A stretch of 64,000 bases of DNA from Fibrobacter sp. (GTDB taxonomy: Bacteria > Fibrobacterota > Fibrobacteria > Fibrobacterales > Fibrobacteraceae): NCBI GenBank assembly GCA_045617325.1, contig JAZLIJ010000066.1:1787-65786 (forward strand), in the 5' to 3' direction. Under the pieces are notes generated by a model. It ran no database searches, had not been told where the DNA came from, and saw only the letters and a list, made by a program, of their open reading frames with translations. Shown here piece after piece: positions 1,875 through 64,000 of the stretch; position 1 is the first letter of the stretch; every line of letters starts with the position of its first letter. Made by a program: the position numbers and the translations under genes.

Positions 1875-1935
1875 ACTCTCAATATATATATGGAGGCTTT
1901 CTCCAATGTAAATTTTTTTATTCAGCCCCAAAGTT

Positions 1936-1956
1936 CTGTTGAAAATTTTTCAACAG
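1936..1956. promoter_or_regulatory. perfect 10-bp-arm palindrome CTGTTGAAAA-T-TTTTCAACAG upstream of the TIGR02147 gene (candidate operator or weak terminator of the upstream operon)
   Basis: Read directly from sequence. It lies 62-82 nt upstream of the preferred ATG at 1874. No U-run follows on the minus strand, so it is not a canonical terminator. Confidence 0.3.
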
Positions 1957-2038
1957 TTTACACCAAAACACATACAATTTTAGAAAAAGTGTTGATAAAA
2001 TGCACTATTGTAAAAAAAAATATGCAAATTGGAGCGCT

Positions 2039-2926: not shown

Positions 2927-2933
2927 AGGCGGC

Positions 2934-3464: not shown

Positions 3465-3474
3465 GGGGTTTCTC

Positions 3475-7117: not shown

Positions 7118-7124
7118 GAGAGCC

Positions 7125-9833
7125 TCACATGCAGTTCTTTATCATGTCCAGCAGCGCTTTGTACTTGGCCATGACCATGGAGTGGTTTGACTTGATGTAG
7201 CTGTAGCGCTTGTCCTTGCATGCCTGTTCCAGGGCCTTTGCCGCTTCGGCTATATCCGTGGCGCCTATGGTTTGGCTTGAACTCTTGAGAGCGTGGATTG
7301 CGATTTGGTAGTTCTGCCAGTCCTCGGAACCGAAGTAGCTGGAAAGTTCGCCCGACTTGTCGCCTGTCTGGTATTCGGCAAGGATTTGGAGGTAGAAATT
7401 CTCGTCATTGATGCAGTAGCTTAGTCCCTGCTTTACATCAAGGATTTTTTCGAGATTTTCCATTTTCGAGTTGTTGTCGGAAATCTGCTCGGGTTCAGCG
7501 ATGGGCTGGGTTATCGTCTTGAATATGACTGTGGATGGCCGCTGCCTGCCTTCGATAGTGTGGCTGGTCTGTATCCTGTGGACTTTTGTCTTGGATGACA
7601 TGGTGGATGAATTTTCGCTTCCGTTCTGTTTTGTTGGCGATGTAAGCGTCTCGCTGTCCATGTCGTCGCTAGTTAGAATCAGATTCTTGGGCAGGTACCA
7701 CTTCAGCATTCGGATGAAGTCGTGCTCCTTGATAGGCTTGGAGAGGTAGTCTGCGAAACCTTCCTTGAGATAGTTCTCCTTTGCGCCGACGATAGCGTTT
7801 GCGGTGAGCATGATGACCGGGGTGTCCTTGTTGATGTATTCTCCCAAGTCCTTCATTTTCTGGAATGTCTCAAGACCATCCATGACAGGCATCATGTGGT
7901 CGAGGAAGATGAGGTCGTAGTGATTCTGCTGTACCATTTGCAGGCATTGCTTGCCGTTGGATACCAGGTCAACGTTTATCTTTGTATCCTTGAGGAGCCC
8001 CTGTACGACCTTCAAGTTGATTTCGACATCGTCAACGACGAGAACCTGGGCGCCCGGGGCGAACAGCTTGTCGTTTCCGACGGATTGCAAAATCATGGAA
8101 CTCTTGTACTTGTCGGAGAAGTTTCCCATGGGCTCGTCGCTCTTGACGATTTGCGGAATTTGAAGTGTGAATACGCTTCCCTTGCCGAGTTCGCTTTCCA
8201 CGTTGATGGAACCGTTCATCATTTGGACCAGCTGCTTTGTGATGCTAAGGCCGATTCCTGTACCTTCCAGGTAGTTGTTCGTCTTGTTGTCAACGCGGTC
8301 GTAATTTTCAAAAATCTTCTTGAGATTTTCAGGCTTGATTCCTATGCCTGTGTCCTTGACGACCACGTTCAGCATGACTTCTGTTTCAAGTCCAAGCCCG
8401 ATGTGTGCCGTTGGCCTGTTCTCGAATGAAACGCTTAACGATATGCTTCCTTCTTCAGTGTACTTGACGGCATTGGAAAGCAAGTTGTTGATAATTTGCC
8501 TGATTCTCACCTCGTCACCGTAGAGCTTGGATGGTAACATGGGGTCGGTATTGATGAAGAACTTGATGTTCTTGGCGTGTGTCCTTGCCGAGGTGATGTT
8601 GTAGCAGTCGTTCAATACAGAGAACAGCTCGTAGCTTGTGTTTTCGAGCTGCATCTTGCCAGCTTCGATTTTCGAAACATCCAGAATATCGCTGACGATG
8701 GATAGCAAAAAGTGCCCTGTACTCTGAATGTTGGTTGCGTATTCCCTGATGGATTCCTTGTCGGTTTCCTTCATTATCATTGCGTTCATGCCGAGGATGC
8801 CGTTGATTGGGGTGCGGATTTCGTGGCTCATCTTGGCGAGGAAGGATTTCTTCGCCCTTGTGGCGTTGAGGGTGCGGATCTGGTTCCTGTGATTTGCAGT
8901 GCAGAAGAATGCAATCAAGAGGAATAGAATCAGTGAAATGGCAATGTTTCTCTCGAATGTCTGGTGCACTTTGGCGAAAAGTTCGTCCTCGTTCATGATG
9001 ATGGACACGTACCAATTGTCGTAAATGGTGGTTGTGAACACCATGCGCTGCTTGCCGTCCATTTCAATGTGGAAGGGCTTGTCCTTGGAAGCCATGATGA
9101 GCCGTGCAAGTTTTTCCTTTTCTGTTCCCCAGTATTTGTCGCTAAGGTAGTTTTCGCCTATGTCGGAGTCGTTGGACTTTGCTATGACGATTCCTGTACG
9201 GTCCAGGAGAATGCTTGTGCCCATGTTGTTGATTTGGACTTGGCGAAGCAGTTCCTGGAGGTTTGTTGCGGTGAGATCCAGTGAAACGACGTTTTTTTTG
9301 TCGGCAAGCCTGCGACAGATGGAAATGATGATGGATTTTGTCTGGCTGTCCACGTATGCAGGGACCAGTGCAATTTCTCCCTTGGCTCGAGCGGCTTCTA
9401 TATACCAGGGACGCTCCATGGGGATGTAGTCCTCCTCCGGGACCCAGCCGACTCCATCTATATAAGTATCGTTGAAATAACCGTAAAAGCCGGTGAACGC
9501 TTCCCCAATTTGTCTGGAGTAGTTGTTTGTGAAGTGGATAAGAATATCCTTGATGTCTTCTGTGCTTTTTCCTTCTTTGAGCATGTGCTCAATGAGGTCT
9601 GCCGTGATATTGACTGTGGAAATGCTCTTTAGCAGATGGTTGCGGAGCTTTTCGGAACTTTCGTTTACGGATTTTTGCCCGATGGTGATGATATCTTCCT
9701 TGGCTAGGTCCGAAAATGACTTGAATGTGAAGCTTACGATACCTGCAATGGCGCCTATCGTCATGATAAGCGTAATGATATACTGGATCCAAAACTTTGT
9801 TTTTTCTTTTTTTGTTTCTGCGTCAAAATTCAT
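7125..9833 (-). CDS. hybrid sensor histidine kinase/response regulator with Cache-like sensor and intact Hpt domain
   Basis: TM, roughly 250 aa Cache-like extracytoplasmic domain, then TM. H-box FLAKMSHEIRTPINGILGM, ATPase DTGIGI/GTGIGL, receiver VLVVDDVEINL...FLDHMMPVMDG, and Hpt motif AIHALKSSSQTIGA (His codon 7293-7295). Confidence 0.9.
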   Translation of the reverse strand: MNFDAETKKEKTKFWIQYIITLIMTIGAIAGIVSFTFKSFSDLAKEDIITIGQKSVNESSEKLRNHLLKSISTVNITADLIEHMLKEGKSTEDIKDILIHFTNNYSRQIGEAFTGFYGYFNDTYIDGVGWVPEEDYIPMERPWYIEAARAKGEIALVPAYVDSQTKSIIISICRRLADKKNVVSLDLTATNLQELLRQVQINNMGTSILLDRTGIVIAKSNDSDIGENYLSDKYWGTEKEKLARLIMASKDKPFHIEMDGKQRMVFTTTIYDNWYVSIIMNEDELFAKVHQTFERNIAISLILFLLIAFFCTANHRNQIRTLNATRAKKSFLAKMSHEIRTPINGILGMNAMIMKETDKESIREYATNIQSTGHFLLSIVSDILDVSKIEAGKMQLENTSYELFSVLNDCYNITSARTHAKNIKFFINTDPMLPSKLYGDEVRIRQIINNLLSNAVKYTEEGSISLSVSFENRPTAHIGLGLETEVMLNVVVKDTGIGIKPENLKKIFENYDRVDNKTNNYLEGTGIGLSITKQLVQMMNGSINVESELGKGSVFTLQIPQIVKSDEPMGNFSDKYKSSMILQSVGNDKLFAPGAQVLVVDDVEINLKVVQGLLKDTKINVDLVSNGKQCLQMVQQNHYDLIFLDHMMPVMDGLETFQKMKDLGEYINKDTPVIMLTANAIVGAKENYLKEGFADYLSKPIKEHDFIRMLKWYLPKNLILTSDDMDSETLTSPTKQNGSENSSTMSSKTKVHRIQTSHTIEGRQRPSTVIFKTITQPIAEPEQISDNNSKMENLEKILDVKQGLSYCINDENFYLQILAEYQTGDKSGELSSYFGSEDWQNYQIAIHALKSSSQTIGATDIAEAAKALEQACKDKRYSYIKSNHSMVMAKYKALLDMIKNCM

Positions 9834-10025
9834 AATCGTTCTTGGTTGAATTTTAAAATTCGATGAAGATATACCTTTATAAATTTAACATGAATTGGGT
9901 GGGAAATTTTAGACAATCTTTTTTTTGTGTAATATTTTTTTAAGAAAATGGGGCTGTAGGCGTTTTTGTCTATTGCATGAATGTTTGCAAATTGTGAATA
10001 AAATGTGAGCATTTTACCGCGCCAT

Positions 10026-10950
10026 ATAATTAATTATGAGTTATAAATTACGAAGTATGAGATTTTTGCATCTGGAGATGCGGATTTAGGGAACAATGAA
10101 CAATGAACAATGAACAATGAACAATGAACAATTAACACAAATGCGTAAGGCGAGAGCAGCGCGAATGCTTGCATTCGCATTGCCGAGCCAAGCATTGAAC
10201 GCCGTAGGCGTTCGCAGCGGCGGTTATGAAATATCAAAATGCAAGCATTTTGCTGCTTCATAACCTTGCATGCTGTTGGCACGGGAGCGGAGCGACTGTG
10301 CAATGAACAATGAACAATGAACAATGAATAGGAAATTATGAGTTATGAGAGTAAATGTTGCCTTGGATCCTCCCCAAAGGGGATAAGAATTGATTCAAAT
10401 CAAAGATATGACTTTTTTAGTAGGAAGTAGACAGTAGGCAGTAAACAGGAGTAAGTGAGGCGCTTCGCGCGGGGCTGGCTTGAGTTATGAATTATGAGTT
10501 ATAAGTTATGAGATGAAAGTGAGGCGGCTTCGCCGCAGTTTTATTCCGAAACAAGATGCGTTAGGGATGCGCAAGTGGGATTCCGGCTCGGAGGCCGGGA
10601 TGACGGGGCCGAAAACGGTCATTCTGGAGGCTCGGAGAGAGAATCAAGGATGAAGGATGAAGGATGAAGGATGAAGGATGAAGGATGAAAGATGAAGGAT
10701 GAGTTATGAAGTATGAGTTATGAATTATGAGATTGGATGATTTGCTAGACGGTTTCGACATCTTTTTCGTTTCCGTATGCTCCATGGACCATGCGCTCCC
10801 TATCTGCCGACAGGCAGACTCGCGATGACATTCTTGTAAGTAAAACGAAAAAAGCACAAAACCCAAGCCCTGCGCATCTCCAGCAGCAATTCCTGTTTAC
10901 TAACCACCAACCACTAACCACTTGGAAATGAGCTTTCCAAACGGCAACCA
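10026..10950. repeat. mosaic intergenic element cluster A (heptamer arrays + GC hairpin modules)
   Basis: A gene-free gap of about 1.1 kb, of which 10026-10950 is this mosaic. Heptamer arrays at 10034-10061, 10091-10125 (GAACAAT x5), 10301-10328 (CAATGAA x4), 10418-10459, 10485-10519, 10646-10736 (13 units, mostly AAGGATG) and 10900-10922. Hairpins: gcgaatgc/gcattcgc 10161-10178, gaacgcc/ggcgttc 10197-10213, caaaatgc/gcattttg 10235-10252. Modules are shared with the other clusters (see findings). Confidence 0.9.
10646..10736. repeat. 13-unit heptanucleotide tandem array (AAGGATG x6, AAAGATG, AAGGATG, AGTTATG, AAGTATG, AGTTATG, AATTATG, AGATTGG)
   Basis: Counted directly; a single 7-nt register is kept over 91 nt while the unit sequence drifts. 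Confidence 0.9.
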
Positions 10951-10954
10951 TCAT

Positions 10955-11851
10955 CTACCGATGCCAGAATGTAGTCACTTTTTGGTAACGGGAGATATCT
11001 GCCATCGCAGCGGCGGCGGCGGCGGCTTTTTCATGCGACTCGAAAATGCCGAAGACGGAAGCTCCGGAGCCACTCATCAGTGCGCATTTCGCTCCGAGTT
11101 CCAGGAACTTCTGCTTCATTTCAGCGACAAGCGGATGCTTCGGGAAGACGGAAACTTCGAAAGCGTTGTAGAAAGAATCTGGATGCAGACAATAGGATGT
11201 TGCAGACAAATTGCCGGATGCCGGATGCTGAAGCGCAGAAGATGCATTTTCACAATTCGCCTTGTACTTTTCCCAGCGATCGGGGCCGGATTTTGGGACG
11301 CCCGCGTAGGCATCCTTCGTCGGAACGGCATCCAAAGGAGTCGCAATGAGGAGCGCCTCGCCCGCTGGCAAATCCAGCGGAGGAACGAAAGTCAAACGTT
11401 CACCGATACCTTCTGCAAAGGCGGTTCCGCCACGAACGAGGAACGGCACGTCGGCACCGAGTTTTGCACCGATTTGCTCCAGCGTTTCAAACGGAAGATT
11501 CAAATTCCAAAGCTTGTTCAGCAGACGAAGTGTCGCGGCAGCATCGGCACTGCCACCGCCAAGACCAGCCCCCAGCGGCATCACCTTCTCAAGATGAATG
11601 TCGGCTCCGAGCGAGACATTCGCAAAATTTTTCAGCGCAACCGCCGCCTTGTACACCAGGTCCGATTCCACGGGGTAATCCTGCGGCTTGTTATAAGTCA
11701 AGCAAATTTCGCCATCTTCACGAAGCGTCGCCTCGACGGTATCGCCTGCGTCAACGGTCTGGAAAACAGTGCCAAGGTCATGATAGCCATCTTCGCGTTT
11801 GCGGATGACATCGAGAAACAAGTTGATTTTTGCAGGAGCGTATTCGATCAT
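10955..11851 (-). CDS. ispE: 4-(cytidine 5'-diphospho)-2-C-methyl-D-erythritol kinase
   Basis: N-terminus APAKINLFLDV, GHMP-kinase ATP loop PLGAGLGGGSADAAATL, and 298 aa length are typical of IspE. Confidence 0.9.
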   Translation of the reverse strand: MIEYAPAKINLFLDVIRKREDGYHDLGTVFQTVDAGDTVEATLREDGEICLTYNKPQDYPVESDLVYKAAVALKNFANVSLGADIHLEKVMPLGAGLGGGSADAAATLRLLNKLWNLNLPFETLEQIGAKLGADVPFLVRGGTAFAEGIGERLTFVPPLDLPAGEALLIATPLDAVPTKDAYAGVPKSGPDRWEKYKANCENASSALQHPASGNLSATSYCLHPDSFYNAFEVSVFPKHPLVAEMKQKFLELGAKCALMSGSGASVFGIFESHEKAAAAAAAMADISRYQKVTTFWHR

Positions 11852-12039
11852 AGCGGTTGGTTTGTTAGTTTGTAGTTAGGTTTACAGCAGAAAGTCGCTA
11901 AACCTATCGTCTTTCATCTATACCCTATTAATTCTTTTGCGACGGGAAGTGCGCTGACGCTGAAAATTTAGCTTTTTGCGATTATTTTAGCGACAAGAAA
12001 TGCGAAAGTTCACCAAAACAAGCCTCAAAAGCGACAATG

Positions 12040-12274
12040 TACAGATAAATCTAGGGAAAAGACGGCATTTATCGGCCCACCTGCAAAGTTCCGTGTTTTA
12101 AGGCAAAAGTAAACGGCTTGCAGAGCGAGTTCCCGGCTCGTAGGCCGGGATGACGGTGAAGTGAATATGCTGGAAAATGCACAAGCAGCATTCCCTACAG
12201 CTTCTCGCCTCAGCAATTTTTCTGCTTACTAACCACCAACCACTAACCACTCCGCCGCAGATTTAACGCAGCAA
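12040..12274. repeat. mosaic intergenic element cluster B
   Basis: Contains module TCCCGGCTCGTAGGCCGGGATGACG (12131-12156), the 23-mer CTAACCACCAACCACTAACCACT (12229-12251, identical to 10900-10922) and CCGCAGATTTAA (12255-12266). It ends at the ftsK stop. Confidence 0.8.
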
Positions 12275-15200
12275 TCACCCGAATTTTCCGGAGCGTTCGA
12301 GATTCATGAGACCGTCCATATCGACGAGCATGGCGCGGGGCTTCGAATTGCCCTTGCTAGGTCCGCAGACGCCAAGGCCGTAAAGCTGATCCACAATTTT
12401 TCCGGCGCGGCTGTAGCCTACGCTGAAGTGGCGCTGCACCGCCGAAGTCGAGAGGCCGTTCACGCTAATCGCCCATTCGGCGACCTCGAACAGCAGCTTG
12501 TCCAGCTTCTCGTTTTTCAGATTGCCGCCTTCTTCCCCATCCTCGTCATCGCCGCCAGTAATGTCGAAGGATTCCACCTGCGGATAGCAGACGTTCTGGT
12601 TGGAGCAGGCATCGGCCAGCTTTTCCGCCTCCTCGTCGCTCAGGAATGCGCCATGGACGCGTTCCGGGTCAGGGGCGTTCACGGCCTTGAAAAGCATATC
12701 GCCGCGACCGAGCAGTTTTTCGGCGCCGGCGTGGTCCATCACCGTGCGGGCGTCAATCTGCGAAGCGACCTTGAAACTGATGCGGGTCGGCAAGTTCGCC
12801 TTGATGATGCCCGTGATAACCTTCACCGACGGACGCTGCGTCGCAAGCACCAGGTGAATTCCGACGGCACGCGCCTTTGCGGCTAGGCGGGCGACCGACT
12901 TTTCAATTTCCTTGCCGGCGACCATCATCAAGTCCGCCATTTCGTCGATGATGACGACGATGAACGCCATGCGGTGCCCGCGATCTTCTTCGGGGACTTC
13001 GTCCGGGAGCTCGTTGGCATCGAACTTCGCATTGAAACCGCCAATGTTTCTCACCTTCGCCATGGCAAGCACTTCCGTGCGGCGGTCCATTTCGTAGCAG
13101 AGCCACTGCAGCGCCTGGATGGCGATTTCGGGCTTCGTAATCACCGGGGCGAGCAAGTGCGGAATGTTCTCGTACATCTTGAGTTCCACGGCCTTCGGGT
13201 CCACAAGAATCATGCGGAGCTCATCGGGCGTCTTGCTGAAGAGAATGCTCGCCATGAGCGCATTGATGCAGACGGACTTACCGGAACCCGTCTGACCGGC
13301 GATGAGCAAGTGCGGAGCCTTCGCCAAGTCCATGGTGAAAGCCTCGCCCGTAATGTCCTTTCCGAGCGCCACGAGAATTTTTTCCGGGGACGGCTTGAAA
13401 TGTTCGCTCATGAACACGTCCCTGCAAAATACCGTCTGGAACTTGCGATTCGGAATTTCGATGCCCACGGCGGCCTTGCCAGGAATCGGAGCCAGGATGC
13501 GCACAGAACTCACGCGAAGCGGAAGCGCCAAGTCCTCCTGCAACGCAGAAAAGCGGCTTACCTTCACGCCCGGTCCCGGTTCCACTTCGAAGCGCGTAAT
13601 CATGGGGCCCGTCTCGCAGCCGATGACGCGACCGCGCACCTTGAAGTTCTCGAGTTTTTCTTCGAGCATCTTGCCGATATCGTTCAATTCCTCTTCGGTG
13701 TAATCGGCGGTCTGCACCTCATGCGTATCGAGGATATCCTCGATGCTTGGAATCTTGTACTTGTCGAAAGCGGCGGTTGAATCCGGATGCGGAATTGCAG
13801 CGGCACTCCCTTCGGGCATTCCGGAGCGTTCCAGAATCGGCTCGAAATCGTTTTCTTCCAGCGTATTTTCCGGTTCATCAACTTCTTCAGGAGCCTCGTA
13901 ATGGAAACTTGTCGGCGCATCGTCCTGTTCTGCTGTGGAAGCAGAGGCTGCAACCGAGGATGCAGCGGTTTTCGCAGATACCCTAACAGCAGACGCATCC
14001 GCCTTCCGGGATGCTGACTTCGGCTCCGCCTTGGCGCGGGACTTTTTGGCAGTAGCGGCACGGGTCGCAACCAACGTCTCATTTTGTTCGCCCTTATCCG
14101 CTTGCGTTTCTGACGATTCCGTCGGAACTTCCTGGACAGATTCTACCGCAGAAGATTCCGAGCGGCGCACGTCGCCCTTCACCTGCATTCTGCCGGGGCG
14201 TCCCTTTTCCCAGTCGATAAAGTCGCGTGCCCTGCGAAGCGCCGCAATCCGCTCCTTGATTTCAAGAATCTGAAGCGCATTCATACGATGCTCATTCAGG
14301 CGCAGTTCCTCTTCGAGACGGCGAATTTCAGGATCCCTGTCATCACCCACCTCGTTACCATAATCAAATTCAGGTACAGCTGGAACTGGAGCTTCGACAA
14401 TAGTCGGCGCATCAAAATCACGCCCCGAGTCCATCTCAGGAATATTTCGAGATTTTTCTATGCGAGGTTTTTCAATCACCTGCGTCGGAGCTTCATCAGG
14501 TTCAATGAAAACCTCCTGTTCATCAAGCCAGTTGCGACGTCCATTGAACGGCACAACCTTCCCTTTTCTACGCATTTTCGATTCATTCGGCACAAAAATC
14601 ATAGTTTCGTCGTCCATCATCACACCTTTACGACGACGGTTCGATTCCACAGAAAGTTCCACAGGTTCGGCGTCCACGACCTCGGCCGTTTTCTCCCTCG
14701 AAGAAATCAAATTTGACAAATAGTTCGCCGTCTGCCCGATAAAGCGGAAATGCCTCGGTCGAAGGCCAAACGATAGAACAAGAATCAAGCAGAACGCGAC
14801 TAGCGAAATAATCAGCGACGCGAACTTGGATTCCATTCCGAAAACAGGAATCGAAACATTCTGCACCAGGAACTGTCCAATGACGCCACCGTTCATGGAG
14901 AGAATTTCATCGGAAACATGCGCAACACCGTAATTTTTCAGTGCCATGAAAAAAGACACATTCAAAACCAAAAGCGAGAAACCAATTGCAAAACGCAGAA
15001 GTTTAACACGAAGCGAGGAGAGCGCAATTAAAAGCCCCCAAAGCACAAGGGCAATTGTAAAGAAAATAACCGAGACCTTGCCGAAAACAAGCGTCACGAC
15101 ATGGGGAAAAAGTCCGCCAAAATAAGGTCCAAGCCAATTATGCGAAGCCCCGCTGTAGACGCCAGTCACACATCCAAGCAGAAGCATGCAACCCACGGCA

Positions 15201-15316
15201 AAAAGGAACCAGCCACCGACAACAACTCCAAAACAGGAATCGTTATTTTCGGGAACAGAAGACTTACTTTTTGAGCTTGTAGCGCTCTTTGCACTCTTTT
15301 TCTTTTGCGCAGCCAA
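12275..15316 (-). CDS. ftsK: DNA translocase FtsK
   Basis: N-terminal multi-TM domain, long low-complexity linker, and a C-terminal motor with Walker A GQTGSGKSV, DEMADLMM and ATQRPS. Winged-helix gamma domain at the end (VSTSAVQRHFSVGYSRAGKIVDQL). Confidence 0.95.
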   Translation of the reverse strand: MAAQKKKSAKSATSSKSKSSVPENNDSCFGVVVGGWFLFAVGCMLLLGCVTGVYSGASHNWLGPYFGGLFPHVVTLVFGKVSVIFFTIALVLWGLLIALSSLRVKLLRFAIGFSLLVLNVSFFMALKNYGVAHVSDEILSMNGGVIGQFLVQNVSIPVFGMESKFASLIISLVAFCLILVLSFGLRPRHFRFIGQTANYLSNLISSREKTAEVVDAEPVELSVESNRRRKGVMMDDETMIFVPNESKMRRKGKVVPFNGRRNWLDEQEVFIEPDEAPTQVIEKPRIEKSRNIPEMDSGRDFDAPTIVEAPVPAVPEFDYGNEVGDDRDPEIRRLEEELRLNEHRMNALQILEIKERIAALRRARDFIDWEKGRPGRMQVKGDVRRSESSAVESVQEVPTESSETQADKGEQNETLVATRAATAKKSRAKAEPKSASRKADASAVRVSAKTAASSVAASASTAEQDDAPTSFHYEAPEEVDEPENTLEENDFEPILERSGMPEGSAAAIPHPDSTAAFDKYKIPSIEDILDTHEVQTADYTEEELNDIGKMLEEKLENFKVRGRVIGCETGPMITRFEVEPGPGVKVSRFSALQEDLALPLRVSSVRILAPIPGKAAVGIEIPNRKFQTVFCRDVFMSEHFKPSPEKILVALGKDITGEAFTMDLAKAPHLLIAGQTGSGKSVCINALMASILFSKTPDELRMILVDPKAVELKMYENIPHLLAPVITKPEIAIQALQWLCYEMDRRTEVLAMAKVRNIGGFNAKFDANELPDEVPEEDRGHRMAFIVVIIDEMADLMMVAGKEIEKSVARLAAKARAVGIHLVLATQRPSVKVITGIIKANLPTRISFKVASQIDARTVMDHAGAEKLLGRGDMLFKAVNAPDPERVHGAFLSDEEAEKLADACSNQNVCYPQVESFDITGGDDEDGEEGGNLKNEKLDKLLFEVAEWAISVNGLSTSAVQRHFSVGYSRAGKIVDQLYGLGVCGPSKGNSKPRAMLVDMDGLMNLERSGKFG

Positions 15317-15407
15317 TCAAAATCCTCCAAAAGTAGATTTCAAATATAGGTTTTATTTGTGACACATTCACTGACACGAATCTTACTTTTTTTATCTTTT
15401 CCGCGAC

Positions 15408-18400
15408 ATGGCGTTCAATATTCTAAAAAAAATAAAAATTCCTAAAAAATTAAAAAAACTAATTTACGGTATTCTCTCCACGACGATTACCGTAAGCTTG
15501 ATTCTTGTTTTCGGAAGCACTCAAAGCGACATTACAGACCGGGTTTCCACAGGCAAGGAATCCTTAATAGAGAATATTAAAATTGAAGCGAGTAGCGCCA
15601 TCAACAGATCCATCAAAGCAGCGCGTCCAGGTGCAGAATCATTAGAAAATATTTTCTACGACCTTTTCTTCAAAAAATTGACATACAGGGAACCCGTTGA
15701 GGGCGGAGCCGTCAAAAAAGTTTCCACAGCCACAAGCTACGACCCCAACATCCTTATTGTCGATGTTGACGAACCATCGCTAGACAAACTCGGAAGCTAC
15801 TATGAATGGGACCGCTCCATCCACGCCAACGTGGTCAAGAACTTGAGCAACGGAGGCGCCTCTGCCATCAGTTTCGATATTCTGTTCAAGAACGCGGACT
15901 TCGGAAAGCAAAAAACGAATCAGGTCGTAAACGTTCTAAAGAGCATCTATCCCGATTCTACCTGGGATACGCAAGCATCCACCATCCAGTCCGGCTTCAA
16001 CTACGACTCGCTCCTTGTGCAAGAAATCAAGGACGACGGAAACGTCATCGTATGCAGCATGTTCGATGATAGGAAATCCTACAAGCACGAATCCCAGTGG
16101 GCACCACTCAGTTCGGAAGAACGCGCCGATTCCATCGGTTACACCTCCACCTTTGAATATTCCCAGGCAGACAAGCCACAAAACATCGAGCCCAAGGACC
16201 TCCTCGACAACATCTTTCCGAAATTAGCCAATGCAGGACGCTTCATGGGTTCCGTCAACGCCTACCCCGACGATGACGGAGTCGTGCGCAATGTGGCAAT
16301 GCTCTACAGATTCCCCAATCCGGAACTCTACGAAAATATTCCAAGTAAAATTTACTCCACCATGTCGCTCATGACAGTACTTCACCTTTTCCACCAAAAG
16401 CCGTCAAACGTGCAAATCAAGATGGGCAAGTACATCGACATAGGAAAGCCCTTCGGCATCTACAGGGAAATGGACGGAAGCTACCACGTCACCTATCCGC
16501 AGTTCAGCTACCCGATGTTCCTTTCGCTCCGTGAAAAACTTATCAATATTCACAAAACCAAGAAGCTGAACGACGAGTTCGTTGACGTATCCACAAGCAT
16601 CATCGCCATCAACAGTAAAGACGACGGGCTCATTTTCGAAATAAAAGTCGGCGACGAATACCAGACGCTCACAAGCAAACTTTCAAACACACTTCTCAAA
16701 CTGGACACGACAATATTCCACAAAATCCCAAACGGGAAATCGCTGAAACTTGGCGAAGGAATTGAGCTTTCAAGCGACACGGAAATCGAGGGAGCCTATC
16801 TTCTGAGGGACGAAGAAGAAGACGAAGAAGCGAAAATCACGCCTTTCGCACTGAACACCATCAACTTTTTCAAAGATTCTCTTGAGAACATTCCTGTAGG
16901 CAAGCAAAAGCATCTTTCGCTGAACCTTGACCTCCGCTACGACAAGGAAAAGAAACAGTGGAATACACAGTTTATGGTCTTGACGAAGAAGGTTCTCGAC
17001 GACATCCGCCTAACCCCAGACAAGGCTATTGCGGACCTGAAACCAGGCGAAGAACTCCGCTTCGGTGAAAACAAAAGAATTCCTATCAACAAGTATGGGC
17101 GCTACCAGGTCAACTACAAGGGACGTTACAATACGGACGAAGTCAATCGAGTTTTCCAGCACATTTCTTATTATGACGTGACCAAGAACCGCATCGACCC
17201 CGCCTTTTATCAGGGTAAAATTTTCATTCTCGGATCGGCGGCGGCGGCCTTGTTCGATTTCAAGCCTGGTCCGCACGAAGAAAACAACCCCGCGGTGCTC
17301 ATCCACGCGACAATTATCAAGAACATTCTCGAAGATGACTACCTCACGACTCTAGAGGAAAATTACCAGCGCATCATTGTCATCATCCTGGCCATTATAT
17401 GCATGCTCCTAGGTCTCTATCTGAAAAGCTACCTGTCGCTTGGCATTTCGATGCTCCTGATCTCAATCTACGGCATTGTCGCCTACCACTACTTTGAAAT
17501 GGGCCTCTACATTGGCGTTTCAAAGCAAGTGCTCGCCATATTGCTTACAAATATCGTTGCACTCGTTGTCCAATTCTACTTTGAAAACAAGGAAAAACGC
17601 TTCCTCGACAACGCCTTCAAACAGTACATCTCCCCCGAACTGATCAACGAAATGGTCAAAAACGAAGTGATGCCAGAACTCGGTGGCAACAAGTCGAACA
17701 TCACGGCGTATTTCACCGACATCGCCAGTTTCTCCACATTCTCCGAAAAAATCGGTGACCCGACCAAGCTTGTCGAACTTTTGAATGAATACTTGACTGC
17801 AATGACAGACACTCTTCTAGAGAACAAGGGTACTCTGGACAAGTACGAAGGCGATGCCATTATCGCATTCTTCGGAGCACCGATGCCACTTAAAAACCAT
17901 GCGCAAAGCGCCTGCGATACAGCAATCGACATGCAGAACAAGCTCATGGGTTTGCGTCAAAAATGGGTTCATGAACAAGGCAAGTGGCCAACCGTTGTCC
18001 ACGACATGCACATGAGAATCGGAATCAACTCCGGAGACATCGTTACGGGCAACATGGGGTCTACCATGCGCAAGAACTATACGATGATGGGAGACGCTGT
18101 GAACCTCGCTGCGCGCCTTGAAAGTGCAGCAAAGCAGTACGGGGCATACATCCAAATTAGCGAAGACACGCAAAAGCATCTTGAAGAGGGCAAATACATC
18201 TACCGTTCTCTCGACACGATTCGCGTTATCGGAAAAAGCCTTCCAGTCAAGACATTCGAGCTTTTGCAGAGAGCCGACTGCGCAGACAAGGACAACTTGA
18301 ACAAACTTGTAGAGATTTGGGAATTGGCTCGTGAAGCCTATCTCGCCATGGAATGGAACAGGGCCATAGAACTCTTTACGCAATGCCTAGACTTTGAGCC

Positions 18401-23494: not shown

Positions 23495-24295
23495 ATGAAG
23501 ATTTTCTTTGCAGGTACAGGCAACATGGGCGGCGCGATTCTCCGCGGACTTTTGAACGCTGGAACACAAGCCCAGGATATTTACTTTCTCGACCCAAGCG
23601 ATAAGGCTGCAGAAGCTGTAACGGCACTCGGCTGCGTTCGCGTCAACACCTTTGCAGAAGGAGTCGGAAATGCCGACGTCACGTTCCTCTGCGTGAAGCC
23701 GCAGATTTTCAAGCTTGTTTCCGCCGAATGGAAAAAAGCGACTGCATCAATCGAAACGACGAAGACTTTCATCAGCATCATGGCGGGTGTTGCTCGCAAG
23801 AGCCTCGTCGAAGTCCTCGGAGACAAGAACCAGGTGCTCCGCGTAATGCCGAACCTCCCCCTCACCGTCGGCAAGGGTTCCGTCGGCCTCGCAACAGACG
23901 GAGTCTCCGAAGAAACGCTCAAGCTTGCTGAAAAAATCTTTGGCAACATCGGTGTCACCTGCCGCGTCGCAGAATCGCTCATCGATGCTGTCACGGGACT
24001 TTCCGGCAGCACTCCTGCTTACGTCTTTGAATTCATCGAAGGCCTCACTCGCGGCGGCGTAAAAGCTGGCCTCACCCGCGATGTCGCTCTCAAGCTCGCC
24101 CTCGGCACCATCGAAGGCAGCGTCGAACTCGTGAAGCAGACCGGTAAGAGTCCATGCGACTTGTGCGCCATGGTCTGCTCTCCGGCAGGTACGACAATTG
24201 CAGGTATCGACGCTCTCGAAGAAGGCGCATTCCGCAGCACGCTCATCAAGGCCGTTGTCGCCGGCACCGAACGCAGCAAGGAACTGGGGAAATAG
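23495..24295 (+). CDS. proC: pyrroline-5-carboxylate reductase
   Basis: Start at MKIFFAGTGNMGGAIL (Rossmann GxGxxG), inside the longer ORF 23045-24295. P5CR C-terminal block SPAGTTIAGIDALEEG. Confidence 0.9.
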   Translation: MKIFFAGTGNMGGAILRGLLNAGTQAQDIYFLDPSDKAAEAVTALGCVRVNTFAEGVGNADVTFLCVKPQIFKLVSAEWKKATASIETTKTFISIMAGVARKSLVEVLGDKNQVLRVMPNLPLTVGKGSVGLATDGVSEETLKLAEKIFGNIGVTCRVAESLIDAVTGLSGSTPAYVFEFIEGLTRGGVKAGLTRDVALKLALGTIEGSVELVKQTGKSPCDLCAMVCSPAGTTIAGIDALEEGAFRSTLIKAVVAGTERSKELGK

Positions 24296-25008
24296 GGGCT
24301 AGTGGTTGGTGGCTAGTGGTTCGTAAGCAGGATTAGTTTGGCGGCTGCGCCGCGTGGGTTGTTGCCGCGAGATGCATTTGCGATGCGGCGTTAAATCTGC
24401 GGATGTAGGGGCTAGTGGCTAGAGGCTAGGTTCTAGGGTGGAGAGTGGCGCCTTCGGCGCAGGTTTACTCAGCTGCGAGATGCAGTAGGGATGCAACTTG
24501 CGCATTTTCCTGCACACCCCCCTTCCACGTCATCGCGAGCCTGCCTGTCAGCGGGCAGGGAGCGAATGCGATTTACGCATCTTTCAGCATTCCCCCCCAT
24601 CCACGTCATTGCGAGCCTGCCTGTCGGCGGGCAGGGAGCGACGCGACGAAGCAATCTCTTGAGGCTGTTGTTTAATTATAAGTTATGAATTACGAGACGC
24701 TTTAGAGTCGCATCAATAAACTGCAAGACCCTCAATCAAGTCGAGGGAGACAAAGAGGAAAAAAAACTCAAACCCTAATCCGCGCATTTCTAGATGCAAC
24801 CATCCTTAAGCCCAAATTCTACGCCTACAGATTCATAGCGACATGCACAACCAATCTCATAATTTATAATTTATAGTTCATAATTGTTCATTGCACAATC
24901 GCTTCGCTCTTGTGCCAAATGCTGGCCTCGGTCATGTCCGTGCAAGCACGGCCGCGACACTCGACCTACGCATTTGTGTTAATTGTTCATTGTTAATTGT
25001 TAATTGTC
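24296..25008. repeat. mosaic intergenic element cluster D
   Basis: Starts at the proC stop and ends 1 nt before the ATG at 25010. Heptamer arrays at 24298-24322, 24411-24438, 24674-24696, 24856-24897 and 24974-25008. Two tandem copies of module CACGTCAT(C/T)GCGAGCCTGCCTGTC(A/G)GCGGGCAGGGAGCGA lie at about 24523-24570 and 24601-24650. Also carries TTAAATCTGCGG at 24391-24402. Confidence 0.85.
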
Positions 25009-25009
25009 C

Positions 25010-26323
<1,314 letters not shown>

Positions 26324-28130: not shown

Positions 28131-28697
28131 ATGGGCGCAATCAAGGAACCTGCAAAGGTCAAAATTATTGTAGGCATCTTGGCAAAAGATGCCGCTGCCG
28201 TGGAAAACGTTCGAGCCACGCTTCGAGAAAAATTCGGCGAGGAAGACTTCAACCTCCCCCCGTTCCCGTTCACGTTCACAAACTATTACAAGGAAGAAAT
28301 CGGCGAAGCCCCCGTGCGCGCCTTTTTCAGCTACGAGCAGCTCGTGGACCGCACCGAAATCGTCGATATCAAACTTTGGACAAACGACGTGGAACTGCAA
28401 ATCGCCGAAGCCGCAGGAACTCCCGGATTACGTCCCGTGAACCTCGACCCCGGCTACATGACGCTAGGCCAGTTTTTCCTCGCGACAACCAAGGACCAGC
28501 GACAGCGCGTCTACATGCAGCGCGGCATTTTCGTCGAACCGACGCTCTACTTTCAGGACGGACATTTCCACCACTTCGACTGGACCTACCGCGACTATCA
28601 AAGCGAGTCCTACATCAAGTACTTGGAAGAAGTGCGCAAGCGCCTCGCCTACCAACACACCACAGGGAAACCGTACAATAAGAGAAATGAAGGATGA
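28131..28697 (+). CDS. DUF4416-like protein
   Basis: N-terminal KVKIIVGIL and PFPFTFTNYYKEEIG blocks recalled from the DUF4416 family; not verifiable here. Confidence 0.5.
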   Translation: MGAIKEPAKVKIIVGILAKDAAAVENVRATLREKFGEEDFNLPPFPFTFTNYYKEEIGEAPVRAFFSYEQLVDRTEIVDIKLWTNDVELQIAEAAGTPGLRPVNLDPGYMTLGQFFLATTKDQRQRVYMQRGIFVEPTLYFQDGHFHHFDWTYRDYQSESYIKYLEEVRKRLAYQHTTGKPYNKRNEG

Positions 28698-28839
28698 AGG
28701 ATGAAAAACGAATCTTTTGATTTTTCTCATTTTGTTTACTCTACGGCGTAGCCGTCATTATTTACATCTTTCATTTTTCACCTTTCACTTTTCATTTTCA
28801 AAAAAAAATACAACCTGCCCCCAGAAATCTCAAACCTAT

Positions 28840-31461: not shown

Positions 31462-31895
31462 GATGCAGCATTAAATCTGCGGAAGAGGGGCTAGGATTTA
31501 GTGGTTAGTGGTTGGTGGTTGACGCCTTTGGCGTCCGCTGCTTCGACTCGGATATAGAAATGAGCGAGCTCATTTCTGCATCTCTCGCCTTGCTCGCTCT
31601 TGGTAAGCAGTTGAATGTTTGGCGCTTCGCGCGAGAATTTTTCGGAAGCGAGATGCATTCGGGATGCGCAGGAAGATCCCGGCTCGGGGGCCGGGATGAC
31701 GTTGCTCCGCATAGTCACCCTGGAGCGAAGCGATAGGGCCGAGATGACGAGTCTAAGGTGACGAGGACAAGCACTACTCAAGCAGCAAATCCGCGCATCT
31801 CGCTTTCACAAAAAAAAGCTTCTCCAGATGTAAAACGAAATCCTAGATTCTAGCCACTAAATCCTAACCTGCGCATTTTCAGCAGCAAACCAGCC
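31462..31895. repeat. mosaic intergenic element cluster F with imperfect terminal inverted repeats
   Basis: Left end: GATGCAGCATTAAATCTGCGGAAGAGGGGCTAGGATTTAGTGGTTAG. Reverse complement of right end: GATGCGGCTGGTTTGCTGCTGAAAATGCGCAGGTTAGGATTTAGTGGCTAG. The interior carries the 71-nt module 31540-31610 and TCCCGGCTCGGGGGCCGGGATGACG at 31677-31701. Confidence 0.75.
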
Positions 31896-37771: not shown

Positions 37772-38024
37772 ATATAACCTAGTCATGCATCGCAGGAGCT
37801 TTCATCGCGCTAGCCATCAGCATGAAGAGTTTCATCCACAGAAAGTTTTATGTTGCAAACGCGTCATTGCACAGGCAAAGGGATTTTTTGCAATTTTTCA
37901 AAACAAAATAATCACTATTTATGTTTTTCATTCAAACTATAAAAAAAAATAAAATCCCTTGACAGAGCACTTAATTCAGTATATATTTGAGCAGTAGCAC
38001 AAAAGTGCAACACACGGAGAACTT

Positions 38025-38633: not shown

Positions 38634-38689
38634 AATGAGGACTGAATATTCAAGATTAAATTTTGCAACAAGCAAAGCTATCAGCAAAA

Positions 38690-39187
38690 AAAAATGAAGG
38701 ATAAAAGATGAAGGATAAAAAAATCACAAATAAGAAAACAAATAATTAATTTTCCCCCTATACCCTATTCACAATTCCCTATTCACTGTTCAAGATTCTC
38801 AGCACCGATGCCCAAACAGATTGCTTCGTCCAGCCGGCTCGCCATGACGTACAAGGCGAGTGTTGCGAAAAAATGCTTGCATTTTTTCATTACCGAGCAG
38901 CAGGGTCATGCGCTCCGCGCAATGACATGGGAGCCGAGAGCAGCGGCCACGCTTGCGAGGACATTGCCGAGGCGAACCTGTCATGCGCTTGTGCCATGAC
39001 GCACAAGGTTATCAAACGCGGGAGCTTGCTCACGCATTTGACAATCGCAGAGTCATGCACAAAGTACAACGACGTAAAAAACAATCTCATAACCCATCCT
39101 TCATTCACTATTCACTATTCACTATTCACTATTCACTATTCATTGTTAATTGTTAATTGTTAATTGTTAATTGTTAATTGTTAATTT
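38690..39187. repeat. mosaic intergenic element cluster G separating ruvA from ruvB
   Basis: 14-mer duplications at 38693-38720 (ATGAAGGATAAAAG/A) and 38763-38790 (CCCTATTCACAATT/CCCTATTCACTGTT), a GC-rich hairpin-bearing core, then the 84-nt heptamer array 39104-39187. Confidence 0.85.
39104..39187. repeat. 12-unit heptamer array (TTCACTA x5, TTCATTG, TTAATTG x5, TTAATTT) ending 4 nt before the ruvB ATG
   Basis: Counted directly; one register throughout. Confidence 0.95.
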
Positions 39188-39191
39188 CCCC

Positions 39192-40229
39192 ATGGACGAC
39201 CAGCGCATTATTTCTCCACAAAAAGGCTATTTCGACGAAAGCGACGCAGAAAAGAATCTGCGACCGCCCAGCCTTACAGAATTTACCGGCCAGGACGATA
39301 TCAAGGAAAGCCTGTCCATCGCCATCGAAGCGGCGAAACACCGCGGCGATTCACTTGACCATTGCCTTTTCGCAGGGCCTCCGGGACTAGGCAAGACAAC
39401 TCTAGCAGGCATCATCGCGAAAGAGATGGGCGTGAACATCCACATCACAAGCGGTCCCGTCCTCGAAAAAGCGAGCGACTTGGCGGGCCTCCTCACCAGC
39501 CTACAGGAAAACGACGTTCTCTTCATCGATGAAATTCATCGGTTGAGCCGCGTCGTCGAGGAATACCTCTACCCCGCCATGGAAGATTTTAGGTTCGACA
39601 TCATGCTGGATTCGGGTCCTGCGGCACGCAGCGTGAACCTGCCGCTCAAGCATTTCACTCTCGTCGGCGCAACCACTCGAAGCGGACTTTTGACAGGTCC
39701 ACTCCGCGACCGCTTCGGCCTGCAGTACAGGCTTGAGCTTTACAACGAAAAAGACATCGTCAAGATTCTGATGCGAAGCGCAAAGATTCTCAACGTGAAG
39801 CTGACCGAAGAAGCTGCCGAAGTCCTCGGCGGACGCTGCCGTGGCACCCCGCGTATCGCAAACCGCGTGTTGCGCCGTTGCCGAGATGTAGCTCAAGTCC
39901 GCGGAACAGGCATCATCGATGTGCAGGCGGCTTCCAAGACACTCGACATGCTCGGTATCGACAGCGAAGGTCTCGACCCGATGGATAGGAAGATTCTCGC
40001 CATGACCATAGACAAGTTCGGAGGCGGTCCCGTGGGTCTCGGCACCATCAGTGCAGCTATGGGCGAAGAACCGGATACTTTGGAAGAAGTCTACGAACCG
40101 TACCTAATTCAAAAGGGGCTGCTTTCAAGGACCCCCCGCGGAAGAATCGCGACGCAGAATGCCTACAGGATGTTCCACAAGACACCACCTGTACACTTGC
40201 AAAGCGAGCAGACTGAACTGCCACTTTAA
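39192..40229 (+). CDS. ruvB: Holliday junction DNA helicase RuvB
   Basis: Start at [10 protein letters not shown]. Contains [13 protein letters not shown], Walker [12 protein letters not shown], Walker [10 protein letters not shown], and sensor residues. Confidence 0.95.
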
Positions 40230-52138: not shown

Positions 52139-52687
52139 TCAAGGCATCTCTTTTTTCGCGGGCTTAGCACCTGTATCGCCCTTTTCAAGGCGCATCTGCT
52201 GGAAAAACGCTTTCAGCATTCCAAGGCATTCATCGGCAAAAACTCCTCCAGTCACCTGAACGGCCCTCTTAAGGGCGTTCCCCGTAATCACGTCGATAGT
52301 CGTGCCGCATCCGCCAAAGCGCGTATCCGGGGAACCGTAAACAACGCGACTGATGCGGCTGTTGAGGATTGCACCAGCGCACATCGGGCACGGCTCCAAG
52401 GTTACATACAAAGTACATCCATCCAGTCGCCAATTTTCAAGCGTCCCCGCCGCAGTCCCGATGGCTATGATTTCAGCATGCGCAGTGGCGTCCTTCATCG
52501 TTTCCACTTGATTGTAGCCTCTCCCAATCACGACTCCATCTTTTACAATGATGCAGCCAATGGGAATTTCCTTTTCGTCAAAAGCTTTCATCGCCTCGCG
52601 AATTGCCATTCGCATAAAGCGCTCGTCCACCAAGCGTTGGGAATCGACATCTGTCGTTGAATTTTGTATTTCGGAAATCGGTTGCAT
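52139..52687 (-). CDS. tadA: tRNA adenosine(34) deaminase
   Basis: Zinc motifs HAEIIAI and PCPMCAGA. The short basic C-terminal extension is unusual but in frame. Confidence 0.9.
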   Translation of the reverse strand: MQPISEIQNSTTDVDSQRLVDERFMRMAIREAMKAFDEKEIPIGCIIVKDGVVIGRGYNQVETMKDATAHAEIIAIGTAAGTLENWRLDGCTLYVTLEPCPMCAGAILNSRISRVVYGSPDTRFGGCGTTIDVITGNALKRAVQVTGGVFADECLGMLKAFFQQMRLEKGDTGAKPAKKEMP

Positions 52688-52757
52688 AATGAATTAACAA
52701 TTAACAATTAACAATGAACAGTGAATAGGGAATGATGGATGAATTATGAGATTGATT
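52688..52757. repeat. 10-unit heptamer array directly abutting the tadA start codon
   Basis: AATGAAT, TAACAAT x3, GAACAGT, GAATAGG, GAATGAT, GGATGAA, TTATGAG, ATTGATT. On the coding (minus) strand this reads ...TTCACTGTTCATTGTTAATTGTTAATTGTTAATTCATT-ATG, the same unit order as upstream of ruvB. Confidence 0.9.
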
Positions 52758-53029
52758 CGGCAGCGTTCTGAGACCAGTCTTCCAGGACCCCGAGCTGGGC
52801 TTTCACAGCAGCATCCCTAATACATCTCGCAGCCGCAAAAACTCGCGCCGGAGGCGCCAGGCATTCCTTTCATAACTTATAATTCGTAATTAATAACTTT
52901 CTCAGCCCGTGCCGCAGGCGCCTAACATCTCCTAGATTCCAGCCCCGAGCAGAAATTTCACTTGAACATTCTGCGAGAGAGAATTTTTGTACAATTCAAG
53001 CCCCTTTTCAACAAAAATAGGCTCCAAAA

Positions 53030-53232
53030 AAACATTTTCCCTCATTTGGAGTCTATTTTTACAAACAAACTAAACAACAAAAGATCATTCAACGAAAAAA
53101 AAACTCACCTTATGGACTCCATTTTTCATTTTTTCATCTTTTGGAGCCCATCTAGGATTCGATCCGAAACAATCATTCGCAAACAAAGTAAAAAAATAGA
53201 CTCCCAAAAAGCATTTTTACTCATTTGGAGCC
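53030..53232. repeat. pair of ~34-nt hairpin units with CATTTT-containing loops plus an inverted 13-mer
   Basis: GGCTCCAAAAAAACATTTTCCCTCATTTGGAGTC (53030-53063) and GACTCCCAAAAAGCATTTTTACTCATTTGGAGCC (53199-53232). GGAGTCTATTTTT (53058-53070) is the reverse complement of AAAAATAGACTCC (53192-53204). Confidence 0.7.
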
Positions 53233-63668: not shown

Positions 63669-63709
63669 CCGCGCGCCCGCGCACCTCCGCGACAGCTTTT
63701 TCGGAAATT

Positions 63710-63752
63710 AGCGGGATTTTCAAGCATTTTCGCTCGAAAATCCCGCTTTTTC
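63710..63752 (+). terminator. rho-independent terminator after the radical SAM gene
   Basis: AGCGGGATTTTC (63710-63721) / GAAAATCCCGCT (63736-63747) with a 14-nt loop AAGCATTTTCGCTC, followed by TTTT. A similar imperfect hairpin lies at 63889-63930. Confidence 0.65.
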
Positions 63753-64000
63753 GTTACTTTATTCACAACAACTTAGCAACAAACTCGTAAAAACAGCGCA
63801 TTTTCGCCTATCAGCGCGAACAAAAGCAGCTTTTCGCCCCGAAATCCCCGCAGAAACAAGCATTGAGCCACATACAACGTAATTTTTAGCGGGATTTTTC
63901 GCCATTTTCGGCAAAAAACCCCGCCTTTTTCGCCTATTTCGGTTTTCTTACAACAAAAACTGATTGACCTGCCGTTCCACATCTCTACTGCTAAGGGGCT

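Follow-up and report, generated by a model that had tools for sequence, protein, structure and literature searches.

Heptanucleotide repeat cassettes at the start codons of ruvB, tadA, and an activator gene in Fibrobacter: probably recent members of a dispersed repeat system

A 64,000-nt stretch of Fibrobacter sp. DNA (GCA_045617325.1, JAZLIJ010000066.1:1,787-65,786, forward strand; hereafter the window) was analyzed with regard to tandem heptanucleotide arrays that run into the start codons of ruvB, tadA, and a gene for a sigma-54-dependent activator. The arrays probably belong to a lineage-specific intergenic repeat system of very high copy number, that is, to recent repeat DNA that is tolerated and is not a conserved control element. 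In the reading that we prefer, to which a probability of about 0.6 is assigned, they are hypermutable heptanucleotide cassettes that were inserted in intercistronic spacers, where they are tolerated and may be of use as unstructured leaders free of a Shine-Dalgarno (SD) sequence. A first-pass annotation of the same DNA had described the arrays and missed both their nature as lineage-specific insertions and their membership in a huge family of dispersed repeats.

The features of the window are summarized in Table 1. The ruvB array of 12 heptamers, ending 4 nt before the ATG, is exactly as first described, and the sequence of the activator array also agrees with its earlier reading as five nATTGTT units (24974-25008) followed by a single C and the ATG at 25010. 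In the case of tadA, the array does touch the ATG and has the same unit order as that of ruvB, but its end had been given as TTAATTG x3 TTCATT and is really TTAATTG x2, TTAATTC, ATT. The gap between array and start codon is 4 nt for ruvB, 0-3 nt for tadA, and 1-3 nt for the activator gene, and all three arrays are in the forward orientation. An exact 21-mer (TTCATTGTTAATTGTTAATTG) is common to the three leaders, and an exact 11-mer (CAATCTCATAA) starts four arrays in the window. Tandem Repeats Finder returned a period of 7 with 91-100% matches. Moreover, strong lag-7 periodicity was found in seven window regions and in none at lags 4-6 and 8-12, and no strong lag-7 region arose in 50 dinucleotide shuffles of the window. 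Of the five TTAATTG/TTCATTG arrays, three run in the sense orientation and stop no more than 4 nt from a start codon; for arrays placed at random in intergenic DNA, P is roughly estimated at 2e-5.

Table 1. Coding sequences (CDS), heptamer arrays, and associated repeats in the window
Feature	Position	Strand	Remarks
ruvB CDS	39192..40229	+	Pfam RuvB_N, AAA_lid_4, RuvB_C; start codon confirmed
ruvB heptamer array, 12 units	39104..39187	+	TTCACTA x5 (39104-39138), TTCATTG (39139-39145), TTAATTG x5 (39146-39180), TTAATTT (39181-39187); then CCCC, ATG 39192
Head of ruvB leader cassette	39082..39103	+	CAATCTCATAA CCCATCC TTCA; collinear with head of tadA cassette
Remainder of lineage-specific ruvA-ruvB insertion	38634..39081	+	Multi-copy GC-rich modules together with AT-rich repeats (ATGAAGGATAAAAG x2.4 and heptamers of CCCTATT type)
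Sigma-54-dependent activator CDS	25010..26323	+	Pfam Sigma54_activat; start confirmed by orthologue N-termini
Activator leader array	24977..25009	+	TTAATTG TTCATTG TTAATTG TTAATTG TCC directly before ATG 25010; preceded by GTG
GC-rich module resembling a miniature inverted-repeat transposable element (MITE), nested in heptamer array	24894..24976	+	Ends CACAATCGC...GCATTTGTG; shared with 10138-10300(-)
Cassette head upstream of activator	24852..24893	+	CAATCTCATAA TTTATAA TTTATAG TTCATAA TTGTTCATTG, broken by module
G-rich heptamers GGCTAGT/GGTTGGT	24293..24319	+	Begin at proC stop codon
tadA CDS	52139..52687	-	Pfam deaminase domains; N-terminus common to P0122
tadA leader cassette	52688..52757	-	AATCTCA TAATTCA TCCATCA TTCCCTA TTCACTG TTCATTG TTAATTG x2 TTAATTC ATT; touches ATG 52687
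Two ATTGTTC/TTCATTG arrays	10091-10137 and 10301-10328 (span 10091..10328)	-	Flank larger copy of GC-rich module; no adjoining start codon
Array with CAATCTCATAA head	10646..10735	-	Head followed by TAAYTCA units and TCCTTCA x8
G-rich heptamers after GHMP-kinase stop	10899-10922	-	Same class as 24293..24319
G-rich heptamers after ftsK stop	12228-12251	-	Same class as 24293..24319
Degenerate C/A-rich heptamers	11852..11890	-	AAACCTA ACTACAA ACTAACA AACCAAC CGCT; abut GHMP-kinase ATG
ATGAAGG units over DUF4416 stop	28687..28794	+	Matched by CTTTCAC/TTTTCAT units some 45 nt ahead of next gene; predicted hairpin

The same junctions were compared with those of relatives. The ruvA-ruvB spacer is 16, 27, or 38 nt long in relatives with 89-91% identical RuvB versus 558 nt in the window, and no heptamers were found in the ruvA-ruvB spacer of the closest relative. 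The proC-activator spacer, 714 nt long in the window, measures 3 nt in an isolate genome and 66 and 255 nt in two other relatives; the 66-nt spacer, from an 88%-identical relative, consists of other heptamers only (TGGTTAG-type after the stop codon and CTAACCT-type up to the ATG). The tadA start is preceded in one relative by another kind of array (ATTATCC-type units, with the end ATTCTCC ATT ATG). Two tadA orthologues (L130 and L131) have no array; an orthologue without an array carries, where the window has the array, a TAATTTTG box separated from the ATG by 4 nt (TAATTTTG-GGAC-ATG). Thus, across lineages, the same junctions hold no array, a different array, or a far larger array. Two of the three junctions were formerly operon spacers of 3-38 nt. 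On these sequence comparisons, the arrays are lineage-specific recent insertions into formerly tight co-directional junctions and are not ancestral leaders.

Copy number also differs among near-identical strains. The ruvB leader alleles were taken from contigs of four gut metagenomes of one study, in which the ruvB coding flank is more than 99% identical. In X2 and X3, the leader reads TTCACTA TTCACTA TTCATTG TTAATTTT CCC ATG and has no TTAATTG unit; in X1, it reads TTCATTG TTAATTG x2 TTAATTTT; and in X4, it reads TTAATTG TTAATTG TTAAATG TTAATTTT, in which TTAAATG is a variant. Together with the five TTAATTG units of the window, four distinct leader alleles were obtained (0, 2, or 5 units and the variant). 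Similarly, the tadA leader has three TTAATTG units and TTAATTC in L122 and L123, which encode identical TadA, versus two TTAATTG units in the window, and one of these two tadA arrays is preceded by GTG, the end of a GC-rich module. Copy-number change of the slippage type had been put forward earlier, and counting the heptamers in orthologous and strain 5' regions supports it for both ruvB and tadA; an invariant copy number was not borne out. The difference between close genomes comes in one-unit steps, as for slippage-prone simple sequence repeats.

The arrays are dispersed throughout this genome. The summed word depth on TTAATTG/TTCATTG arrays is 5,000-17,000 versus 15-30 on single-copy flanks; it reaches 17,000 on the activator array and is 4,000-8,900 on the tadA array versus 23-31 in its flank (runs X1 and X2). 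Word depth rises to about 400 in the remainder of the ruvA-ruvB insertion (38634-39081), where partial contigs are numerous, versus 18-25 in its flanks. In each DNA sample, 143-190 distinct contigs match the activator spacer, modules and array taken together. When copy number is collapsed, the leader of ruvB is collinear with that of tadA, unit for unit (AATCTCA, TAAyyCA, TCCwTCA, TTCmCTA, TTCACTr, TTCATTG, TTAATTG, TTAATTy); this speaks for a single dispersed cassette rather than for arrays that grew independently.

A GC-rich module is nested in the arrays. At both 24894-24976(+) and 10138-10300(-), a TTCATTG unit is followed directly by the conserved module start CACArTCGC, and the conserved module end CGCATTTGTG is followed directly by a TTAATTG unit; these flanks are compatible with target-site duplication or target preference. 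The ends CACAATCGC and GCATTTGTG form an imperfect inverted repeat as judged by eye, and the copy at 10138-10300(-) holds a further insertion of about 80 nt. In X1, the summed word depth of the module is about 1,100-6,700 versus 15.5 in the flank (about 1,100-2,400 over 24884-24949, rising to several thousand beside the array), and loose contig ends show that other copies join the GC-rich module to CAATCTCGTAATTCA. As relatives have arrays without modules and as array units stand on both sides of the module, we infer that the arrays came first and that the modules invaded them later.

Another class of heptamers, which reads GGTTAGT or GGCTAGT, begins at or just past stop codons. In the spacer that has the G-rich array past the ftsK stop, the degenerate heptamers at 11852-11890 approximate that array's inverse complement. 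Purine-rich heptamers at a stop codon can also pair with pyrimidine-rich heptamers before the next gene, leaving an unpaired heptamer tail before the ATG; such an intercistronic hairpin is predicted at 28687-28794 (-26 kcal/mol and z -4.4 when folded over 28685-28800) and in relatives at L129:70-175 (z -4.9) and L124:115-189 (z -2.4). No Rfam family was found at gathering score anywhere in the window. A pair of G-rich heptamer stretches at 31489-31508 and 31850-31869 is inverted, 90% complementary, and placed around a 341-nt block of modules.

The start codons against which the arrays are placed were verified using orthologues. The N-termini of RuvB, TadA, and activator orthologues agree with the starts as first placed, and starts further downstream were not borne out. 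RuvB orthologues are 345 aa long, are aligned at 100% coverage, and begin MEDQ versus MDDQ in the window, and nucleotide similarity among ruvB orthologues stops at the ATG. TadA begins MQPISEIQNST in the window versus MQQIPEIQNST in the closest relative, and all activator orthologues begin M-x-(x)-IDFFTKET. The best matches of the three proteins (74-98% identity) are in Fibrobacter and Fibrobacteraceae genomes or metagenome-assembled genomes (MAGs), and gut metagenomes contain window DNA. In an exact-protein look-up, TadA was on record, and the RuvB and activator of the window were without an exact record. In-frame TTG codons within the arrays (39171 and 25004) were considered as starts and rejected because their frame varies with copy number and orthologues begin at the ATG; these TTG codons are not conserved.

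The arrays also have practical consequences, as they break short-read assemblies and lead gene callers to extend open reading frames (ORFs) through them. Short-read contigs L122 and L123 break off inside arrays. The database TadA relatives P0122 and P0139 have spurious N-terminal extensions that resemble translated heptamer arrays; that of P0122 (MLIVHFLT) is judged from the protein only, whereas for P0139 (...SILHYPLSIINHQFSI) the DNA of L129 confirms a heptamer array at that place.

It is true, as first reported, that no SD sequence precedes ruvB, tadA, or the activator gene. However, of 44 gene starts placed approximately in the window, only 12 have even a weak SD-like tetramer at a suitable distance upstream; starts without SD are the norm in this genome, and thus the lack of SD does not set the three genes apart. 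TAnnTTTG is the Bacteroidetes-type -7 promoter element. Seven of 46 start codons, namely, 20788(-), 27269(-), 28131(+), 31372(-), 41674(-), 52022(-), and 60564(+), are preceded by its exact form, with 4-7 nt between box and start codon, versus 0.15 expected. Boxes so near to the starts imply many leaderless or near-leaderless mRNAs, which suggests that such mRNAs are common in this Fibrobacter. Each of ruvB, tadA, and the activator gene lies downstream of a same-strand gene and is without its own TAnnTTTG box; therefore, each would be transcribed from upstream, with the array as the last part of a long intercistronic leader. The ruvA promoter region (37959-37989) has TTGACA-17-TATATT overlapping TATATTTG. 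A TATTTTTG box at 53019-53012(-), about 320 nt upstream of tadA and overlapped by the last of the hairpin repeats described below, could be the tadA promoter.

The leaders had been supposed to be AU-rich and unstructured, and this holds. The sense strand contains 5-6% G in the ruvB and tadA leaders and 15% in the activator leader versus 32-46% in the after-stop arrays, and the leaders are not predicted to fold more strongly than their shuffled sequences do (z +0.6 to +1.2). A folding energy of 0 kcal/mol was obtained for the TTCACTA block, and the TTAATTG block alone is predicted to form a weak AU hairpin of -5.3 kcal/mol. Consequently, the focal repeats are not predicted to be one arm of a stable hairpin of a 5' untranslated region (5' UTR), and no inverted partner of them was found in the ruvA-ruvB or proC-activator spacer. 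In metatranscriptome contigs X6 and X16, ruvB is covered from 39411 onward, the 5' ends of ruvB and tadA being outside the coverage; the ratio of array to flank depth in RNA is about that in DNA, and thus it says nothing about transcription.

The repeat system may therefore be pictured as three parts: pyrimidine-rich, G-poor cassettes ahead of start codons, heptamers rich in G that follow stop codons, and nested GC-rich modules similar to MITE or repetitive extragenic palindromic (REP) elements. A cassette of fixed order (AATCTCA, TAAyyCA, TCCwTCA, TTCmCTA, TTCACTr, TTCATTG, TTAATTG) would have been dispersed to the ruvA-ruvB, proC-activator, and ABC-ATPase-tadA junctions, after which each unit type would have grown or shrunk through slipped-strand mispairing, and GC-rich modules would have been inserted into the arrays later. 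Because the arrays adjoin the start codon and no promoter box lies in them, they should be transcribed, presumably as the final 30-110 nt of a long leader, either an intercistronic one or a 5' one. They may persist at start codons because translation starts mostly without SD here, so that an A/U-rich, G-poor, and unstructured stretch would be a workable ribosome landing site. The array may also keep hairpin-forming GC-rich modules away from the start codon. As far as the folding predictions go, a permissive unstructured landing region fits the data, and both a selected role and mere survival are possible.

Several points weigh against this reading. The copy-number alleles are exact 31-mers of k=31 unitigs from short-read assemblies, in which the full array length is resolved in some samples only. 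The ruvB start in relatives L117-L121 already has three imperfect heptamers (TCACTAT TGACCAT TGACTAA), and in-place growth is possible for the ruvB locus. The landing of the cassette 0-4 nt from start codons calls for an explanation of its own, for which a pure selection filter would be plausible. Moreover, we infer transcription through the arrays from geometry only, and the mixed orientation of the arrays before starts in other phyla, given below, shows no strong strand requirement.

The exact 21-mer TTCATTGTTAATTGTTAATTG is found at more than 113 loci in many phyla, where it often abuts CDS boundaries. Its arrays occur in cyanobacteria, Bacteroidota, Clostridia, Oscillospiraceae, Chloroflexota, bacteria of the candidate phyla radiation (CPR), Treponema, and Fibrobacter (L001-L113), and many copies stand immediately beside a start or stop codon; in a further MAG of Fibrobacter (L074), the 21-mer lies 7 nt before a 530-aa ORF. 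According to crude ORF calls, 46 of 114 arrays are within 10 nt of a coding boundary, and the orientations (14 sense and 9 antisense before starts; 20 versus 3 beside stops) are suggestive only. Among viral contigs, the 21-mer gave seven matches (six contigs, L253-L258) versus zero and one for two permuted arrays of the same composition. A metagenome scan with the short pattern CAATCTCATAATTNAT returned at least 120 loci, with a period-7 context in none among the matches listed. The identical TTCATTG-TTAATTG-TTAATTG at gene boundaries across phyla and the excess in viral contigs prompted the idea that the cassette might be a portable, SD-independent initiation leader, spread across phyla by a sequence-specific mechanism or a mobile agent. 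This idea is regarded as quite improbable; if it were true, a dedicated repeat-generating or repeat-binding system, and not generic polymerase slippage, would be at work.

Other explanations assign a function to the arrays. As a selected translational enhancer or standby platform, the U/A-rich heptamers would bind S1 or another RNA-binding protein that recruits the 30S subunit, and recruitment of this kind would serve internal cistrons without SD and be maintained by selection. The AU-rich, G-poor, and predicted unstructured arrays would suit such a platform, as would the position of all three genes as downstream cistrons without their own -7 box and the pyrimidine-rich heptamer tails in L124 and L129, which are predicted to be unpaired just before the start and downstream of a hairpin; S1 or Csp binding was also proposed for the TAACTGA repeats, which have the same position (MacGregor 2015, PMC4679880). 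Since in close relatives these essential genes are expressed behind quite dissimilar heptamers or without any array, and since the drift of 0-5 units among near-identical strains argues against strong constraint, we consider an enhancer unlikely. Slightly less credit is given to a contingency or tuning locus, in which slippage would set downstream expression stepwise, by analogy with the (ATCTTTC)n repeat of hmw1A in Haemophilus influenzae, a transcribed heptamer repeat whose modulating effect on expression is exerted via a hairpin that RNase III cleaves (PMC12721329). The copy-number polymorphism is real, the arrays would be in the leader and adjoin the start codon, and heptamer-built hairpins are predicted at other junctions (28687-28794, L124, and L129). 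However, ruvB and tadA are housekeeping genes for which stochastic switching has no obvious benefit, the three focal arrays are without a complementary arm and are predicted to be single-stranded, and hundreds of loci fit a genome-wide repeat burst better than dedicated switches.

The first-pass annotation had also suggested that the arrays carry promoter elements of the TAnnTTTG type; in the form weighed here, repeated weak boxes, -7/-33-like or sigma-70-like, would start transcription from within the repeat. In its favor, this genome places TAnnTTTG boxes very close to starts, the tadA orthologue described above has its TAATTTTG box in place of the array, and the end of ruvB leader alleles from other samples, TAATTTTC-CC-ATG, deviates from the TAnnTTTG box by a single mismatch. 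The near-match, however, leaves a gap of 2 nt, whereas this gap is 4-7 nt in the seven genes that have the exact box; transcription would consequently start inside the start codon. TAnnTTTG is absent from the arrays on both strands, and no sigma-70-like site (-35/-10 boxes at 16-18 nt spacing) was found on the sense strand of the three spacers near the arrays; the antisense TTAACA-17-AACAAT in the arrays is weak (9/12) and points away from the genes. Both types of promoter reading were thus rejected on sequence, and this explanation is thought improbable. Least probable by far is an artefact of mis-assembled repeats or mis-called start codons. The broken assemblies (L122 and L123) and the extended ORFs (P0122 and P0139) could be taken to speak for it, but the same array-to-ATG junctions in independent assemblies from at least five samples have already refuted it, and the start codons are fixed by orthologue N-termini.

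Further repeats occupy the same spacers. A GC-rich hairpin repeat family (CGTCATCCCGGCC..GAGCCGGGA) is located at 10579-10629, 12129-12179, and 31675-31725. A second GC-rich hairpin family is represented by a tandem pair of GTCATCGCGAGCCTGCCTGTCrGCGGGCAGGGAGCGA at 24517-24565 and 24593-24641, and three hairpin repeats of about 45 nt (GGGCTCCAAA ... TTTGGAGyCTATTTTT) lie at 53010-53210(-) between the ABC-ATPase gene and tadA. Elsewhere in the window, the neighboring genes 3475-6030(-) and 7125-9833(-) share segments of 75-84% identical DNA at a constant offset of 3761-3764 nt; judging from these segments, they are probably paralogues, the Pfam basis (hybrid histidine kinase) covering 7125-9833 only. 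Past the last gene, a terminator-like hairpin (TTAGCGGGATTTT...AAAATCCCGCTTTTT) is present in two copies, 63708-63751 and 63886-63929 (+), 178 nt apart.

REP elements and bacterial interspersed mosaic elements (BIME), Correia and ERIC elements, and MITEs are high-copy mosaic intergenic repeats that are co-transcribed in operons, form hairpins, are mutually nested, and vary among lineages. The Fibrobacter system is similar to them in its high copy number, location at gene junctions, hairpins, nesting, and lineage differences; they differ from it in being without tandem heptamers and in not characteristically abutting start codons. Heptanucleotide units are the most over-represented long simple sequence repeats (LSSR) of bacteria according to Mrazek (2007), as cited in PMC4679880 and PMC4692102. 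In Xanthomonas and Nostoc, G-rich intergenic heptamers (GGGAATC and GGGGAyT) of widely variable length have been described (Rehm 2015, PMC4692102). The LSSR, the short tandemly repeated repetitive sequences (STRR) of cyanobacteria, and these Xanthomonas and Nostoc repeats resemble the Fibrobacter arrays in being intergenic with period 7, in varying in length and sequence at the same junction in close relatives, in giving stem-loops when arranged in inverted order, and in having polymerase slippage as the presumed driver (PMC4692102). Unlike the Xanthomonas and Nostoc repeats, which are G-rich and capable of forming G-quadruplexes, the focal Fibrobacter arrays are G-poor, AU-rich, and located at the start codon.

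The mechanistically solved case is that of the H. influenzae genes hmw1A and hmw2A, in whose 5' UTR the transcribed (ATCTTTC)n forms a hairpin that is cut by RNase III, such that expression falls with repeat length; in hmw1A, 10 or more repeats pair with a G-rich arm (PMC12721329). The likeness lies in a heptanucleotide repeat of population-variable copy number that stands between promoter and start codon and is transcribed, in Fibrobacter presumably so. In H. influenzae, this is a dedicated phase-variable adhesin locus, whereas the Fibrobacter arrays stand at housekeeping genes and at hundreds of loci, and the focal ones have no pairing partner.

Start-proximal heptamer repeats are already known in Beggiatoaceae, cyanobacteria, and Bacteroidetes, and Fibrobacter is a further case of that kind; our literature search found no description of start-codon heptamer arrays in Fibrobacter. 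MacGregor (2015, PMC4679880) described TAACTGA repeats a few nucleotides from start codons in Beggiatoaceae, cyanobacteria, and five Bacteroidetes, with no SD site, 7-nt insertions or deletions between strains, unrelated downstream genes, and a function that was unknown. As in that case, the Fibrobacter arrays are tandem 7-nt units in the forward orientation a few nucleotides from the start, cover the expected ribosome-binding site without SD, precede unrelated genes including essential ones, differ between strains by 7-nt steps, are mixed with other heptamers, and have a patchy distribution across phyla. They differ in that their units (TTAATTG, TTCATTG, and TTCACTA) are of the same kind but of another sequence family, that they form an ordered dispersed cassette invaded by GC-rich modules, and that they could be traced as insertions into once-tight co-directional junctions. 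Start-abutting repeats are on record for uncultivated giant sulfur bacteria and for cyanobacteria, to which Fibrobacter adds a genus with cultivable members. Added here are orthologue evidence for recent insertion, natural alleles with 0, 2, and 5 units before the essential DNA-repair gene ruvB, the nested modules, and a genomic background that is largely SD-free and often leaderless. Taken together, this makes the effect of such arrays on translation directly testable by means of the natural alleles.

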